Positions 33,586-41,580 of a stretch of DNA of 50,477 nucleotides are shown piece by piece. Made by a program: the position numbers and the translations under genes. The stretch covers positions 1 through 50,477 of IMG/VR virus record IMGVR_UViG_3300020166_000003; one strand, written 5' to 3'. Numbering within the stretch: the first letter of the stretch is position 1; the number at the start of each line of letters is the position of its first letter. The notes under the pieces are model-generated. The model was not told the DNA's origin. It was given only the letters and a program-made list of their open reading frames with translations, and searched no databases. This stretch comes from a virus (lineage: Duplodnaviria > Caudoviricetes).

Positions 33586-33620
33586 GCCCTAAAGGGCTAG
33601 AAAATAAATGACGAAAGTTG

Positions 33621-33707
33621 TTGACAGGGCAAGCAATTCATGCCCTAAATGTAATGGCTCAGGGCAACTTCGCCCTTTGCACAATCCTAATCACGAGGAA
33701 ATTTATC
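33621..33707 (+). promoter_or_regulatory. Early promoter/stem-loop/RBS cassette 2
   Basis: TTGACA...TAAATGTAATGGCTCAGGGC...TCCTAATCACGAGGAA, shared with cassette 1. Confidence 0.75.
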
Positions 33708-34295
33708 ATGGCTACAAACACTAAAGGCAAGCAGCAAGCAACGAATTTCAAAGAAATTGAGCGAGTAATGGGCAGTACCTATTGCGAAGGAGCTTTGCTC
33801 CCTGCTTCCACATCACAGCTATACTTCCTAGGAAGTCTATTCGGTCAAGTGTGGCTCAAGGGGGCTGGAGTCGATGTGGATACTTTTAAGTATCAAGCCC
33901 GCAAGATATTCGGTGCGATTGTTTGCAAAGCAAATGACAACGCCAAGCATGGCATCACCCGCTTTGATGTAGCTTTAGCTAAGGAGAATTTCGACAAGGG
34001 CAACCTAAAGGTTCCTGCGGCAATGCTCAAAGCTTGCACCGTTGATCCTACCAGCTTCAAGCCGAAAGCTCCTAAGACAGCCCGCAAGTCTAAGACAGCC
34101 GCCAAGCCTACGGCAACCGCTAAGCCTAAGACACCCGCTAAGCCTAAGACACCCGCCAAGCCTACAGCTAAGACACCCGCTAAGCCTACAGCTAAGACAC
34201 CCGCTAAGCCTAGCACCGATGTGCAGGCTTTGCTCGATGTGATCGAAGCCCAACAAGCGCAGATCGCGGCACTAATGCAAGCCCTAAAGGGCTAA
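33708..34295 (+). CDS. Early protein with histone H1-like Lys/Pro/Ala/Thr repeats, 195 aa (start revised to MATNTK); paralog of 36084-36527
   Basis: GAGGA RBS before ATG 33708; AKPKTP/AKPTAKTP repeats; C-terminal coiled coil. Confidence 0.8.
   Translation: MATNTKGKQQATNFKEIERVMGSTYCEGALLPASTSQLYFLGSLFGQVWLKGAGVDVDTFKYQARKIFGAIVCKANDNAKHGITRFDVALAKENFDKGNLKVPAAMLKACTVDPTSFKPKAPKTARKSKTAAKPTATAKPKTPAKPKTPAKPTAKTPAKPTAKTPAKPSTDVQALLDVIEAQQAQIAALMQALKG
34070..34215 (+). repeat. Degenerate 18/24-bp tandem repeats (GCTAAGCCTAAGACACCC-type)
   Basis: Directly visible; encodes the AKPKTP / AKPTAKTP repeats. Confidence 0.9.
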
Positions 34296-36083: not shown

Positions 36084-36527
36084 ATGGCTACAAAGAAACA
36101 AATACTAGCAGTAATGGGTGAGCAGTATGCAGAAAAAGCTAACGAGCCAGCAAGCACTGGACAGTTGTTTAAACTTGGCGACATGTACGGTCAAGTATGG
36201 TTGGCTGATGCAGACAAGGACTTGAAAGCCTTTAGGTATCAAGCACGTAAAACCTTCGGCTCTATCATCTGCAAAGTAAACGGCGCGGCGACTAAGCCTT
36301 TGACACAGTACGATGTAGCTAAGGCTGTCGAGGACTTTGAAGCTGGCAAACTCAAGATGCGTAAGGAGTACTTAGACTTGTGTATAATAGACGTTAACGC
36401 TTTGGAAGTTCGTAAGCCTAAGACAAGCCGCAAGGTGAGCAAGCCTAGTAGCGATGTCGAGGCTCTTACTGCGATGATCGAAGCACAACAGGCTCAGATT
36501 GCTGAGTTGATTGCCGCTAACAGTTAG
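36084..36527 (+). CDS. Early protein, paralog of 33708-34295 without the long repeat
   Basis: Shared PASTxQL, GQVWL, FxYQARKxFGxIxCK, IEAQQAQIAxL blocks. Confidence 0.85.
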   Translation: MATKKQILAVMGEQYAEKANEPASTGQLFKLGDMYGQVWLADADKDLKAFRYQARKTFGSIICKVNGAATKPLTQYDVAKAVEDFEAGKLKMRKEYLDLCIIDVNALEVRKPKTSRKVSKPSSDVEALTAMIEAQQAQIAELIAANS

Positions 36528-37130: not shown

Positions 37131-37240
37131 GCACCACATCGAGACACCGACATTTACTTTACTTATTAAATGTCACGACAGAACACTGGGATTTGCCCTT
37201 TGTATTTTACTTTTAATTTTAATTTAACGGAGCTTTATAT

Positions 37241-37462
37241 ATGTATACTATCGTAATCGCAGACATCGCCAATTCTTCTAGTGACGACCTTAAGCAAGTC
37301 CAAGTTGAGTCAGGTTCTACAGTAGGGCAAGCACTTGCTCAAGCTGGTGTGACCTTATATCCTGGGCAGAAGGTAGCCTTGAACGGTGTAAATACTACAC
37401 TCGAAAGCCCTATCAATGTTACTGGCATGTTGTCTGTTACTGGCGAAGCTAAAGCAGCCTAG
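37241..37462 (+). CDS. Ubiquitin-like beta-grasp protein (ThiS/MoaD-like), C-terminus -GEAKAA
   Basis: 73 aa; VQVESGSTVGQALAQAG...KVALNG...L...I.....LSV beta-grasp pattern; GGAG RBS; E1/JAB neighbours. Confidence 0.8.
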   Translation: MYTIVIADIANSSSDDLKQVQVESGSTVGQALAQAGVTLYPGQKVALNGVNTTLESPINVTGMLSVTGEAKAA

Positions 37463-37497
37463 TAATTAACCCACAATAACTAAGAGAGGACTCTGGA

Positions 37498-38781
37498 ATG
37501 ACTTTTAAATTAGACGAATACATGAGTAGGTACTATGGTGTTACACCTAGCAGTGTTTACCAACATTCATTTGGGATTGCCCAACAAATAGTCAAGTTAG
37601 AGTCCCAACTTAGGGAGCTAGAGGGTAGAGAAGCTGTAGGTGTTTTGCTTATTAAGGAGCAGTACGCCGCGTATAAACTCCTACCCCTTAGTGACCCATT
37701 AAAATGGAGATGGAAAGAATGTGTGTCTAGGCTTATATCACAGTATAAGCTGGATGTAGACACATTAAGGGAACAAAGCCTTAGACTGCCCCAGCTCAAG
37801 GCTAAGTTAGCTATGGCTACCCCATCACCAGAAAACGAACCGAATTATATTAGTGCCGAGAAGTATGCAAAGGCGTTTGAACAGTTACCAGTATCACTAG
37901 CCCTTGAAGGGGTTTACATTAAACCTACCAAGCCTAATAGAGTTTGGTTGGTTATTACTATAGGCGACCATGTTATAAGACCTGCTAGTAATTTTTTAGA
38001 AGCCCTAGAGGAGGGGCGAGATTTTACAAAGAAAGGCTGGGATCTCACGACTATAGCGCAGTTTGCTCAACAAGGTATCCCTAGAAAGCCTATAACCTTT
38101 GCCATCAATGTGATCTTTAATGACCAAGACGACATGGCTACTGACGTAGAACTTGGAGTATTAACAGGGCATCCCACTAACATTAACTCTAATGAGGCTA
38201 TATTTTGGGACGGTGATAAAGTTTATGAGACTACCGAGATTGAAGAAGGGAGTGAGTATGTGTGTGGCGCCCCAAGCTGTGATGCTACTGTAGTATTCCA
38301 CCCACACATTAGGACTGAGCTATCCGAGTATGAAATATATAGTAGGAGGATGGCATGTTTAGGATCTTACATGACCCCGATGGCTAAAGCAATTAGGGAT
38401 AACAAGCCTACAGGACTTGGGCTATACCTTATAAATTATTTCCAAGAATTTGACCTTACAGATACATGGGGTAGGTTTGGACTTGCACGAATGTTCCGAC
38501 CTAGTGACTTGGAACCTGTAGTCGAGACACCTAAGGTAGAGGCTGTACAAGACTGGCGCCCTTCCTTTATATATCACCAAGACACTAAGATTCTAACCCT
38601 ACTCAACCAGCCCACAGAACAGCAAACGTATGAATTATACGGAAGCTATGGGGATGGTCTTATGTTTATTAGGGAGGGAAGCACCTCAGATAAGGAGGTA
38701 GACTTATCTGATACCGTATATACTTGGATATGGCTTAGAATTGTACCCCGCTATGGGAAAATAGTAACACTTAAACTTTAA
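37498..38781 (+). CDS. Prokaryotic E2-like (UBC-fold) conjugating enzyme with N- and C-terminal extensions
   Basis: FHPHI (H268,H270)...ACLG (C287) mirrors the E2 HPN...CL active site; gene context. Confidence 0.65.
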   Translation: MTFKLDEYMSRYYGVTPSSVYQHSFGIAQQIVKLESQLRELEGREAVGVLLIKEQYAAYKLLPLSDPLKWRWKECVSRLISQYKLDVDTLREQSLRLPQLKAKLAMATPSPENEPNYISAEKYAKAFEQLPVSLALEGVYIKPTKPNRVWLVITIGDHVIRPASNFLEALEEGRDFTKKGWDLTTIAQFAQQGIPRKPITFAINVIFNDQDDMATDVELGVLTGHPTNINSNEAIFWDGDKVYETTEIEEGSEYVCGAPSCDATVVFHPHIRTELSEYEIYSRRMACLGSYMTPMAKAIRDNKPTGLGLYLINYFQEFDLTDTWGRFGLARMFRPSDLEPVVETPKVEAVQDWRPSFIYHQDTKILTLLNQPTEQQTYELYGSYGDGLMFIREGSTSDKEVDLSDTVYTWIWLRIVPRYGKIVTLKL

Positions 38782-38793
38782 CAGAGGATAACC

Positions 38794-39513
38794 ATGACAG
38801 ACTTACATTCTTTATCAGGCTTAAGGTCTTTAGAAATTATAGACTTTGAGAAATACGAACATATACCTATTCATATTGTAGGGCTTGGGGCAGTAGGCTC
38901 TAAAGCCTTTGAGCAATTAGTATGCTTAGGGGCAAGGCACTTAGTATTGCATGACTTTGATACTGTCGAGCATCATAATACTCACAATCAACTCTTTGGA
39001 GTGGGACATGTGGGCATGACTAAAGTGGACGCTTGTTTAGATTGGGTCAAGTATAAGTATGGCGACCAGTATGTAGGTAAAATTGAAACCTTTAACCACA
39101 AAGTTACTGAGGACACTGAGTTAGTTGGTGCGGTATTGATGTGTGTTGATACCTTTGATGGCAGGAGAGCAGTAATACAAGCTTCTATAGCCTCTCAAGG
39201 TGTTGGGATAGTGGTCGAGGGGCGGTGCGCTCCTAAGTTCTTTGAAGTACGGACTATCAATCCTTTCAATACTGAGCAAGTCGAAGGGTTCTTAGGTTCT
39301 TTAGGAGACGATAGCACTCCCGATACTCATGTATCTATTTGTGGTGCGCCTATCTCCTTTTCTCCTGTCATGTCAGCTTGTGGCATAATCATGGTGGGGC
39401 AGTTAATTAGCGCACTAAAAAATGGAGGGGTAGCCCCATCACAAGAACACTTAAACATTTTTATGCAGCCATTACTAATGGTTGGCGGTCAATCTTTAAC
39501 AGGAGAAGTATAA
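38794..39513 (+). CDS. E1-like ThiF/MoeB-family adenylyltransferase
   Basis: IVGLGAVGS, LHDFDTVEHHNTHNQ, GMTKV, CVDTFDGRR; candidate catalytic Cys183 (VSICG). Confidence 0.92.
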   Translation: MTDLHSLSGLRSLEIIDFEKYEHIPIHIVGLGAVGSKAFEQLVCLGARHLVLHDFDTVEHHNTHNQLFGVGHVGMTKVDACLDWVKYKYGDQYVGKIETFNHKVTEDTELVGAVLMCVDTFDGRRAVIQASIASQGVGIVVEGRCAPKFFEVRTINPFNTEQVEGFLGSLGDDSTPDTHVSICGAPISFSPVMSACGIIMVGQLISALKNGGVAPSQEHLNIFMQPLLMVGGQSLTGEV

Positions 39514-40430
39514 TGGGAACACCTAAGGCAGAAGCACTACCAATTAAAGACGCAATCATACCTGACGTATGGTTCTCTACGTTAGCATGGGCTAAGATAC
39601 AAGACTTAATAACCTCACCACATAAAAAATCTAACGAGATTACTTGGTACGGTGACATTGAAAAGACTGATGTGGGAGACTTATACATTAACGATGTCTT
39701 TGTGCCAACCCAAGAAGTTACAAGGGTGTCAACGTCTATCGAAGATTTTAATGTAATTGTACCTGAGGCAGTAGAAGCGGGGCTTAACCCTATGAAACTT
39801 AAGGCTTGGTTTCATCTACATCCTAACGGCATGTCCACTAGCCCTAGCAGTGTTGATGTGGAACAAACTGATGAATACCTAAAGACTTGGAGCTATATCC
39901 TTAGAGGTATCATAAACAACGAGGGTGAGTTTCAATTAGATTACTTTGATAAGGATGCGGGGTTACAGTATAGTAATCTTAGACACTTCATTGACTTTAG
40001 TGATGTGTTAGACAGCGAAGAATTTGAAAAGGTTATAAAAGAACGTGTCACCATCAAAACTCCCGTCTCTCTTGCTAAGAAAGCAGGCTCTACCTACAAC
40101 ACTTACAGCTATGATTACGCTCAAGACAGTAGAGGCAACCAAGACACTGTATATGTAGGGCTACTGGATACTAGGGCTGCCCATGTAGATATATTAGATG
40201 CTTTTGTAGAGGGCGACAGTACTCTAGTAGAGACGGCAACCCACGTTACTACAATGTCCCTTGCAGAAGCTATTGAAAACGGGAGGCTCAAGACTACACC
40301 TTCTACTTGGGAGGCTTTCAAACGTAAGATAGCTATGACTCCTGAATTTTTTGATGTCATGTTCCCAAGTGTTTCTGAGCAAATGAATAAGAGGATTAAA
40401 AATGATAAGACTAAACGCAGTAGTAAGTAA
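39513..40430 (+). CDS. JAB/MPN+ (JAMM) metallopeptidase
   Basis: E42 ... WFH101-L-H103-PNGMSTSP-S112-SV-D115; TAATG coupling to E1. Confidence 0.88.
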   Translation: MGTPKAEALPIKDAIIPDVWFSTLAWAKIQDLITSPHKKSNEITWYGDIEKTDVGDLYINDVFVPTQEVTRVSTSIEDFNVIVPEAVEAGLNPMKLKAWFHLHPNGMSTSPSSVDVEQTDEYLKTWSYILRGIINNEGEFQLDYFDKDAGLQYSNLRHFIDFSDVLDSEEFEKVIKERVTIKTPVSLAKKAGSTYNTYSYDYAQDSRGNQDTVYVGLLDTRAAHVDILDAFVEGDSTLVETATHVTTMSLAEAIENGRLKTTPSTWEAFKRKIAMTPEFFDVMFPSVSEQMNKRIKNDKTKRSSK

Positions 40431-40764
40431 AATCTATGGTGATGGTAGTCGTATCAGGGCTATAGTCTTGAATACTGCAAGTAGGGACACCATGACAGTT
40501 AAGACTGAAGATAATTGTATTCTCGTATGGAGGAGGAGCGATACCGAGTATGTAGGTACACTAGATCCAGAAACTAGGGTACGTGTTAAGAATATGTACG
40601 AGCCTAACTATAAAGTAAGAAGGCTTATAACTATAGTGCCTAGCAGGATGTATAGTGGTAAGCTTTGTATGACTAGAAGCCCTAAGGGTGAGATAGAAAC
40701 TTTCTCGTACATGAATTTCTTTAAGGGCATTAAGGCTCTGGAGGACAGCGATGGACAATCCTAA
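40402..40764 (+). CDS. Hypothetical protein
   Basis: GAGGA RBS; overlaps JAB 3' end. Confidence 0.7.
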   Translation: MIRLNAVVSKIYGDGSRIRAIVLNTASRDTMTVKTEDNCILVWRRSDTEYVGTLDPETRVRVKNMYEPNYKVRRLITIVPSRMYSGKLCMTRSPKGEIETFSYMNFFKGIKALEDSDGQS

Positions 40765-41086
40765 ATATATTCAAGCCCTTAAAGAGGGCAAGGTTCCTAT
40801 GGACTACCTACCCTATACTTGTTTTGCTGAGGACTCATTGTGTCATAAGCATGGGGCAGATAAGTATGGCATCAGGAACTATAGGATCAGTAAAATATTA
40901 GCCAGTACATACGAAGGGGCTATCATGCGACACTTTGTAGCTTGGGCTAATGGTGAGGACTTAGACCCTGACAGTGGGCTTAGTCACTTGACACACTTGA
41001 GGGCTTGCTGTGCTGTAGTCTTAGACTCGCAGAAGCATGGAACTTTCTTAGACGATAGGCTTAGAGCCGAGGAGAAAAAGGTATGA
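40751..41086 (+). CDS. dATP/dGTP diphosphohydrolase-like protein (DUF5664-type)
   Basis: HGADKYGIRNY...YEGAIMRH..AW..GEDLDPDSGLSHL.H..AC motif. Confidence 0.8.
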   Translation: MDNPKYIQALKEGKVPMDYLPYTCFAEDSLCHKHGADKYGIRNYRISKILASTYEGAIMRHFVAWANGEDLDPDSGLSHLTHLRACCAVVLDSQKHGTFLDDRLRAEEKKV

Positions 41087-41580
41087 GCGTATACTTTACA
41101 AGTGATTTACACTTAGGACATTTAATGGCTTCAGACAAACGAGGCTTTAACGACATTAGAGTACACGATGAAACTGTCTTAGCTTCTATTGAAGTTATTG
41201 ACGATAAGAGAATGGTGCTGTATATTCTAGGCGATGTTGCCATGAACCCAGCAATGCTATCGAGACTCAAAGACTTTAAGTGCCGCAAGATATTAGTGCG
41301 TGGCAACCACGATGTCTATAAACTTTCTGAATACTTGGAGGTCTTTGAGGAGATACACGGGTTCGTTAAGTACAAGGGTATGTGGCTGAGTCATTGCCCT
41401 ATCCACCCGCAAGAAATGTTCAGGGCTGAGGTTAATGTGCATGGTCACATACATAAGGATGCCATGACTAAGCCTCTAGGATTCCCTTACATCAATGTAA
41501 ATTGGGACTTCTGGCATAGACCAATAAGTCTTGACGAGGTTAAGGTGTTAATAGAATCACGATCAGATGGGTTAGTGTGA
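41083..41580 (+). CDS. Calcineurin-like metallophosphoesterase
   Basis: SDLHLGH, LGD, GNHD, SH, HGHIH motifs. Confidence 0.9.
   Translation: MSVYFTSDLHLGHLMASDKRGFNDIRVHDETVLASIEVIDDKRMVLYILGDVAMNPAMLSRLKDFKCRKILVRGNHDVYKLSEYLEVFEEIHGFVKYKGMWLSHCPIHPQEMFRAEVNVHGHIHKDAMTKPLGFPYINVNWDFWHRPISLDEVKVLIESRSDGLV

Follow-up and report, generated by a model that had tools for sequence, protein, structure and literature searches.

The window analysed here is the whole of the IMG/VR virus record IMGVR_UViG_3300020166_000003 (Duplodnaviria; Caudoviricetes), a complete virus genome of 50,477 bp with 127-bp direct terminal repeats at its ends. Its early region contains a run of four genes on the + strand, flanked by small early genes and by nucleotide and replication genes, which encode, in this order, a ubiquitin-like protein (Ubl) of 73 amino acids (aa), a protein of 427 aa, an activating enzyme (E1) of 239 aa, and a JAMM/JAB metallopeptidase (JAB) of 305 aa. 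A family scan of the open reading frames (ORFs) also revealed a portal and an adaptor of the SU10 type, a terminase, and a replication module resembling that of T7; the carrier of this kit is a lytic-type marine phage rather than a bacterial defence island. The present analysis concerns the C-terminus of the Ubl, which is Lys-Ala-Ala, and the way in which such an end might be used.

The Ubl gene and its partners

The Ubl gene (37241–37462) begins 8 nt downstream of a GGAG ribosome-binding site (37229–37232), as read directly from the sequence, and closes with GGC GAA GCT AAA GCA GCC TAG (37442–37462), the first six codons of which (37442–37459) specify the tail G68-E69-A70-K71-A72-A73. The product ends in ...VTGEAKAA (NVTGMLSVTGEAKAA), with no C-terminal Gly or Gly-Gly and with its last Gly five residues before the end. 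A preliminary description, made from the sequence alone, had read these codons and the lack of a terminal Gly correctly, while the start that it gave for the segment (37420) falls one base before the codon for T61. Directly after the TAG comes an in-frame TAA (37463–37465), so that two tandem stops occupy 37460–37465, and the next gene, which starts at 37498, is in a different frame; a fusion of the Ubl to that gene by readthrough or frameshifting is therefore ruled out. TAG is a normal stop in this phage, since it ends 7 of the 40 window genes listed. Sequencing error as the cause of the Ala-Ala end is ruled out too: the identical protein has been recorded from 72 contigs, contigs from three runs that carry no source flag (X15, X19, and X20) span the entire gene with zero differences, and a contig from a fourth run (X14) matches it without difference up to 37451. 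The allele is thus real and common in marine metagenomes; no RNA data set is listed among its holders.

The AlphaFold2 (AF2) model of the Ubl, based on an eight-row alignment, has a mean predicted local distance difference test (pLDDT) score of 87.8 and a predicted template modelling (pTM) score of 0.76. It contains strands at residues 2–8, 17–22, 44–47, 50–52, and 62–67 and a helix at 28–34, in the order b-b-a-b-b-b, followed by a flexible tail at 68–73. A Foldseek comparison with the PDB gave 11 matches at E ≤ 1e-3, with TM values of 0.56–0.73, which included SUMO2, ubiquitin variants, RnfH, SAMP1, TtuB, and MoaD; the Pfam matches were all sub-threshold (DUF348 at 1.8e-4 and Ub-RnfH at 0.067). 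As modelled, the product of the 73-aa ORF is a genuine beta-grasp Ubl. Its last strand ends at T67, and the tail beyond is six residues long if A73 is the end and around one residue long if G68 is the end. The suggestion in the preliminary description that the tail length suits a direct activation of Ala is in keeping with the six residues of the model.

The E1 (38794–39513) matches Pfam ThiF at 2.2e-18 (66.7 bits, for a cut-off of 28.1) and has a GxGxxG loop (G32–G35), Asp119, and a conserved Cys183, with G32, G35, and D119 being invariant in a broad E1 alignment, A6. Its best PADLOC matches are to the Cap2-type 'E1-E2' models (1.6e-10); that to BilD (3.9e-5) spans only positions 211–320 of the 453 in the profile. 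In profile searches of the PDB, it matched UBA5 (5.2e-10) and MoeB (2.9e-6) and also UBA1/6. The ThiF domain, the nucleotide loop, and the catalytic Asp, together with the alignments A3 and A6, identify the 239-aa protein as a single-domain ThiF-type adenylating enzyme. A homologue of this E1 (29.5% identity), annotated as a 'thiamine biosynthesis protein', occurs in cultured jumbo phages of Xanthomonas and Erwinia, where inspection by eye recognised no Ubl or JAB beside it; in Xanthomonas phage PhiXhv-12 (L056; PV764601.1, 140754–144128), it directly follows an 893-aa protein with the motif HPH-x13-CLGS and Cys-rich ends.

The JAB (39513–40430) contains the motif E42...H101-x-H103-x8-S112-x-x-D115, the five named residues of which are invariant in an alignment with homologues, A4. 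The A4 profile, built from three JAB homologues, matches BRCC36 across the motif (E = 1.4e-3), a further protein (P0036) aligns with A4 in hhalign at 96.3%, and the JAB homologue of a metagenomic locus, L004, matches both Pfam Prok-JAB (8.4e-4) and PADLOC JAB (3.1e-5). The window protein itself has no match in Pfam or PADLOC, and a search of the genome with the Prok-JAB family gave no match; it is from its motif, the BRCC36 profile match, and its homologues, hence from sequence, that the 305-aa protein is assigned to JAMM/JAB. Beyond the catalytic motif lies a C-terminal extension that varies. In run X15, a second contig set diverges from the window at 39671–40431, in the C-terminal half of the JAB: a contig of 655 nt has 79 differences and 5 gaps, and two contigs of 170 nt have 13–18 differences, while over the 2.4 kb upstream (Ubl, 427-aa gene, and E1) there are only 2 differences, both of them before the Ubl gene. 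The extension might serve as a variable module that faces targets, or it might be a hotspot of recombination. In L004, the JAB and E1 genes are separated by a 167-aa ORF (2106–2609), which by eye is HNH homing endonuclease-like.

The remaining member of the kit is the 427-aa protein (37498–38781). Ubiquitin-conjugating enzymes (E2s) have an HPN...Cys signature, which is resembled by the FHPH-x18-C287-L-G of this protein, and C287-L288-G289 is invariant in the corresponding alignment, A5. The HPH..C[LM]G motif recurs in large proteins encoded next to E1 and JAB in L004, L008, L011, L013, L015, and the L033-type loci, as well as in phage PhiXhv-12. Pfam gave no match for the 427-aa protein or for 15 positional counterparts, a profile search of the PDB found nothing relevant, and Atlas contained no usable match; the single-sequence AF2 model (pLDDT 37.9) is uninformative on an E2 fold, and neither UQ_con nor Prok-E2_B was found in the window genome. 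By virtue of its motif, the protein is putatively E2-like.

Conservation of the tail

An exhaustive HMMER search with the Ubl returned 22 matches. Five long repeat proteins (P0011, P0013, P0018, P0020, and P0021), which are TPR, F-box, PKD, or disintegrin proteins, were removed as spurious, and P0016, a DUF348-type protein, was set aside; seven single-domain lineages remained after the removals. The window cluster, taken as the reference, ends in GEAKAA, as do P0008 (52% identity to the window Ubl) and P0010 (47%), whilst P0007 (52%) ends in GEAKGA; P0004 (71%) and P0014 (47%) carry overhangs and end in GEAKAAN (+N) and GETKAAAVVIV (+AVVIV), respectively. The most distant lineage, P0017 (its identity is 37% when aligned and 39% as given by the search, at E 9e-7), ends in ..VSSPASAG, with Ser at position 68 and Gly at position 73, and is the only one of the seven to lack Gly68. 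The E-A/T-K-A/G-A tail is kept in the six other lineages (47–71% identity), and the aligned position of A73 is the exact stop in five of the seven, overhangs being found in P0004 and P0014 only. In a five-sequence alignment, A2 (48–70% identity), six of the last seven columns are invariant versus 16 of the 66 elsewhere (Fisher one-sided p = 0.0024); at the level of sequence, the tail is the best conserved part of the Ubl. The preliminary description had raised the prospect of homologues that all end in Gly-Gly; none of the seven lineages ends in this way.

Multi-unit relatives from the search place this tail in register with canonical ends. Profile alignment lays the ..VSGDVKG-G of P0019 on the ..VTGEAKA-A of the window Ubl. 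In the units of P0012, 11 residues separate the conserved turn Gly from the end of ..RIRGG, which equals the spacing from G62 to A73, and the end of the Pfam ThiS profile (76/76), which represents a family of ThiF partners, lands on the second Gly of P0012. From these two alignments, it follows that position 71 is the counterpart of the Lys/Arg and positions 72–73 of the Gly-Gly; Ala72-Ala73 occupy the place of the Gly-Gly of P0019 (..SGDVKGG) and P0012 (..RIRGG). In other multi-unit relatives, the units end in K-G-N. At the position of Gly68, P0017 has Ser, P0035 has Leu, P0012 has Pro, and the KGN units have Lys; P0035 aligns poorly with the alignment A1 (hhalign, 5.9%) and is matched by a wider unit hidden Markov model (HMM) at E 6e-6 in a search space of one sequence.

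A survey of phage loci was seeded on the broadened E1 alignment A6, because a query based on the Ubl tail would be circular. The scan of IMG/VR gave 46 phage loci (L010–L055), with E1 relatives at 26–33% identity; a JAB homologue is present in 43 of these and a Ubl candidate, either small or multi-unit, in 32, the latter representing 25 distinct sequences. The E1 and JAB pair is thus widespread in uncultured phages. The last residue of the 25 candidates is Ala in 11, Asn in 7, and Gly in none; in the other 7, a conserved motif, ..[NS]A, ..KGN, or ..AG, precedes one or more extra residues (the tally leaves out L016_8369, of 101 aa, the 206–230-aa proteins of L019, L020, L042, and L044, which have a Ubl-like domain at the N-terminus, and L048, the ..SKGNS protein of which is below threshold). 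In the largest group (20 loci), the Ubl ends in K-A-D-[NS]-A, with an extra A, AA, AI, H, or VL in five loci, and its gene lies upstream of that of a ~490-aa protein, which is the arrangement of the window; this subfamily is homologous to the window Ubl (hhalign, 95.1%, E 3.3e-8). A more distant operon, L008, has the order E2-like/JAB/E1/Ubl, and its Ubl ends in ..SVKGA. It is located on a contig of a Saccharibacteria metagenome-assembled genome (MAG), where PhoH, a Whirly-like protein, and SpoVG follow the operon in a phage-like context, and the contig may be that of a phage binned with the MAG. Across the subfamilies, as judged from their alignments, the last residue is fixed as Ala, Asn, or Gly, with occasional overhangs.

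Within L010–L055, there are at least three types of Ubl tail (K-G-N, K-A-D-[NS]-A, and ..AG plus one or two residues) and two gene orders, Ubl-large protein-JAB-E1 and large protein-JAB-E1-Ubl, and many of the large neighbouring proteins give coiled-coil-like Pfam noise. The N-terminal domains of L019:1480–2097, L042:443–1072, and L044:1906–2595 (206–230 aa) match the K-A-D-N-A-type Ubl profile at E 1e-25 to 1e-37; these proteins, which are without the tail motif, may be Ubl-fused paralogues. Other searches were less productive: GenBank phages gave no matches to the operon DNA, the Ubl, or the poly-Ubl P0022; viral contigs gave no relatives with the single E1 protein or with A2 as the query; a metagenome scan gave three short loci (L002–L004), in none of which was the Ubl gene reached; and in the genome contigs L005–L007 and L009, no Ubl was found by HMM.

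The Ubl of L012 (4246–4524) has a 24-residue Lys/Pro/Ala-rich extension after its K-G-N (KGNAAKKPAAKPVKKPASKPAKKPAKK), and a similar K/P/A/T-rich repeat is found in the window ORF 33618–34295. This ORF, which carries a PAKP(T)AKT repeat, and the ORF 36084–36527 encode paralogous early proteins with a common N-terminal block (STSQLYFLGSLFGQVWL / STGQLFKLGDMYGQVWL) and a common C-terminal ..IEAQQAQIA.. helix. Downstream of the Ubl operon, 40751–41580 holds the gene of a protein with a dATP/dGTP diphosphohydrolase N-terminal domain (Pfam 1.5e-21), directly followed by a metallophosphoesterase; a YfbR-like 5'-deoxynucleotidase is encoded further along, and a gene like that of class II ribonucleotide reductase lies at 22–1614. 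This set of genes may reflect a manipulation of the nucleotide pool or a modified DNA in this phage.

The proposed use of the Ala-Ala end

The interaction of the Ubl with the E1 was modelled for a pair of E1 chains together with ATP, Mg, and the Ubl. The complex scores 0.81, compared with 0.04 for the best of three controls; 58 of 80 solved complexes attain the mark that it passes, as against 2 of 110 mismatched pairs, although, because E1-Ubl is a textbook pair, this pass may reflect a likeness to solved complexes. The runs share at least 68% of contacts, with a partner pLDDT of at least 83. All of the Ubl residues 67–73 are included in the modelled interface, where A72 contacts V34 of the GxGxxG loop, D119, and C145/A146, while Gly68 is 4–5 residues away from the nucleotide loop. 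The model does not distinguish position 72 from position 73.

The interpretation towards which we lean, with modest confidence, is that Ala73 is the working end of the Ubl and is adenylated directly by the E1, with the JAB acting to deconjugate the modifier and to trim overhangs. It is favoured because the tail and its stop are conserved, because Ala-Ala aligns with Gly-Gly, because the tail beyond the fold is six residues long, and because the model puts residues 72/73 at the nucleotide loop; these are also the grounds on which, among the possibilities raised in the preliminary description, direct activation of a terminal Ala comes out ahead. The chemistry is plausible because it has precedents. 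In Cap2 systems, the substrate CD-NTases end in Gly or Ala, as the preliminary description had correctly stated, and the Ala-ended enzyme of E. cloacae is conjugated (PMC10097602). The E1-like MccB, whose native substrate has Asn as its C-terminal residue, also O-AMPylates variants that have Ala, Gly, Ser, or Thr instead (PMC11118369).

In the mechanism that we propose, the chemical steps, the targets, and the biological role are all inferred; they build on the sequence as read, the predicted fold, the set of genes present, and the way in which the tail is conserved and aligned. The 73-aa Ubl would be the modifier of a phage tagging kit comprising the Ubl, the putative E2-like Cys protein, the ThiF-type E1, and the JAB, and its C-terminal Lys-Ala-Ala would be the functional counterpart of the Arg/Lys-Gly-Gly of canonical modifiers. 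The Ubl encoded in the window would be made ready for use, its maturation by the JAB being unnecessary. The E1 would bind the beta-grasp body, the G68–A73 tail would enter the ATP site, and the carboxylate of Ala73 would be adenylated; the acyl group would then pass to Cys183 of the E1, to Cys287 of the 427-aa protein, and finally to the amines of targets. The JAB would reverse this conjugation and would trim the short overhangs of some relatives.

A number of points weigh against such a scheme. The presence of a JAB gene in the operon would suit a maturation step, and, in the best-studied systems, the reactive Gly is exposed by the JAB: BilC cuts G97|A98, and the native Ala98 of its substrate blocks conjugation (10.1101/2023.09.26.559546), while BubCD cleaves after G229 (PMC11601596). 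In type I BilA, the Gly is fully conserved, and G163L kills the defence (10.1101/2023.09.04.556158). For every member of the phage family, moreover, it is from sequence, models, and analogy that we infer conjugation and the activation of Ala, and conjugation itself is conjectural because the E2 identity of the 427-aa protein derives from its motif. Complex models thread any C-terminus that is supplied, and the profile alignment between the K-A-D-[NS]-A subfamily and the window Ubl spans residues 1–50 only, not the tails. Gly68 is kept in six of the seven close lineages and in P0019. The end of another relative, P0025 (..VTSRVANGRL), does not fit the tail motif cleanly. P0007 and the L008 Ubl end in K-G-A, like the Gly-Ala of Ensifer aridi, which makes the register (72 versus 73) ambiguous. 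Finally, the close homologues (P0004–P0017), P0012, and P0019 are known from protein sequences alone and not from their neighbours.

One alternative, which we consider unlikely, is that no covalent tagging occurs, the Ubl being a non-covalent decoy for host E1, E2, or JAB, an adaptor, or a sulfur carrier working with the ThiF-type E1; its non-Gly end would then mirror relaxed or different constraints. Non-conjugating Ubls with non-Gly ends do exist, single-domain E1s of the ThiF/MoeB type classically serve sulfur carriers, and the 427-aa protein is only putatively an E2, all of which would agree with this alternative. However, the tail is strongly conserved and, by prediction, inserts into the E1 that the phage itself encodes, a JAB lies beside the E1 in 43 of the 46 loci, a conserved Cys-motif protein lies beside both in many, and the scan of 40 window ORFs turned up no genes of sulfur metabolism. 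The decoy for host E1/E2 envisaged in the preliminary description finds no support, because the phage encodes an E1 of its own that is predicted to bind the Ubl.

Another possibility, and quite an unlikely one, is that the last residue is a one-residue cap: the JAB would remove Ala73 (N, G, or A in relatives), and the E1 would activate position 72, which is Ala in the window Ubl, so that the reactive residue would still be alanine, and Gly in the P0007, L008, and KGN relatives. The K-G-A ends of P0007 and the L008 Ubl would suit a cap, its removal would expose Gly in the KGN subfamily, and, in the complex model, the contacts to the P-loop and D119 with the lowest error are those of A72 and not of A73. 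There is also the precedent of the BilA of E. aridi, which is processed at G97|A98 and in which Ala98 sterically blocks ATP (10.1101/2023.09.26.559546). Yet a cap would require a cut between the two glycines of the RGG and KGG relatives, although the ThiS profile extends as far as the second Gly; for the K-A-D-[NS]-A group, it would make Asn or Ser the reactive residue, whereas the invariant residue is the Ala that follows; and no family member stops directly after position 72, as would be expected were the cap dispensable.

Slightly less probable again is a classical precursor in which the JAB cleaves after Gly68, EAKAA is lost as a propeptide, and a C-terminal Gly is exposed: JAB/JAMM enzymes do expose Gly in Bil (10.1101/2023.09.26.559546), in Bub (PMC11601596), and in the Caldiarchaeum ubiquitin (PMC6043591), an extension of five residues is within the reported overhangs of up to nine (10.1101/2023.09.26.559546; 10.1101/2023.09.04.556158), and Gly68 persists in the lineages named above, but no segment of the Ubl is better conserved than this would-be propeptide, unlike the Bil overhangs, which are not conserved, Gly68 is replaced in P0017, P0035, P0012, and the KGN units, it lies around one residue from the globular body and 4–5 residues short of the modelled nucleotide loop, and the conserved stop sits five residues beyond it. 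The preliminary description had offered this cleavage as an option, which the conservation of the later residues and the absence of Gly68 from P0017, P0035, and P0012 disfavour.

Relation to known systems

Possession of a C-terminal Gly is regarded as a requirement for ubiquitin-like modifiers. The sole established exception that we found in the literature, that of the Ala-ended CD-NTases of Cap2 systems, does not have the Ubl fold (PMC10097602). If the Ubl of the window is indeed an Ala-activated beta-grasp tag with its own E1 and JAB, the rule would be relaxed, and phages, not only bacteria, would be seen to wield Ubl kits as weapons. Such a kit would provide a naturally orthogonal tagging pair, the Ala-Ala remnant of which on lysine (+142.07 Da) would be missed by standard diGly proteomics. 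Our literature search found no description of a kit of Ubl, E1, and JAB that is encoded by a phage and has a non-Gly tag (Ala-ended homologues might be listed in supplementary alignments of the Bil studies, which lay outside this search). The Ubl/E1/E2/JAB kits that it did find are all bacterial defence systems or archaeal ones, and the phage Ubl-JAB pairs all belong to tail assembly (PMC1779556).

A wider idea, which we put forward as doubtful, is that phage Ubl kits as a class have left Gly. Tags ending in Ala (the window phage and the K-A-D-N-A group) or in Asn (KGN) would be orthogonal to the Gly-specific E1s and JABs of bacterial Bil and CBASS (cyclic-oligonucleotide-based antiphage signalling) systems and would let the phage mark host or rival proteins with conjugates that the host is unable to remove. 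Activation is possible for ubiquitin G76A, the conjugates of which are resistant to deubiquitinases; this would fit the suggestion in the preliminary description that an Ala-ended tag may be orthogonal to host deconjugases. In the Asn-ended relatives, the E1 may, by analogy, work through an MccB-like succinimide intermediate.

A close parallel is the type II BilABCD system of Ensifer aridi (Chambers et al., 10.1101/2023.09.26.559546), a Ubl/E2/JAB/E1 operon in which, as described there, the Ubl gene product also ends in Ala and the JAB acts on the C-terminus of the Ubl. BilA, however, has a universal C-terminal Gly, either bare or followed by up to nine non-conserved residues, and its Ala98 must go, whereas the window Ubl has no such Gly, a conserved tail, and a fixed stop. 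BilD, as reported, is a two-domain E1 with inactive adenylation, active adenylation, and cysteine domains (IAD-AAD-CYS), and BilB is a UBC-fold E2 with a catalytic Cys; their counterparts in the window are a single ThiF domain of 239 aa and a protein that shows only an HPH-x18-CLG motif with an invariant Cys287. Bil is, in addition, a bacterial defence island, whereas the window kit belongs to a lytic-type phage.

With type I Bil (Hor et al., 10.1101/2023.09.04.556158), the phage family shares a fully conserved last residue, a minority of members with overhangs (12 with 2–9 aa in the Bil set described), and an AlphaFold model that sets the terminal residue at the nucleotide loop of the E1, but the conserved end of type I Bil is Gly, with G163L abolishing function, and that of the window family is Ala. 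Type II CBASS, with Cap2 and Cap3, is similar in that its substrates end in Gly or Ala and that an Ala-ended substrate is conjugated (Jenson et al., PMC10097602), in that Cap3 is a JAB isopeptidase, and in that the E1 of the window scores best against Cap2-type models. Cap2, in contrast, is an E2-E1 fusion that acts on a CD-NTase, while the genes of the window are separate, and, for the window ORFs scanned, the family scans named no CD-NTase.

Two smaller systems offer partial parallels. MccB adenylates the Asn end of MccA as a ThiF/E1-like enzyme, with a tolerance that overlaps the N, A, and G ends of the phage Ubls; its substrate is nevertheless a heptapeptide and its product a peptidyl-nucleotide antibiotic, and the pathway, as described, does without an E2, a JAB, or protein conjugation (PMC11118369). 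ThiS and MoaD, with ThiF and MoeB, combine a small beta-grasp protein with a minimal E1, and P0012 matches Pfam ThiS from end to end; these carriers differ from the window Ubl in that they end in Gly-Gly, carry sulfur, and work without a JAB or a Cys-motif partner.

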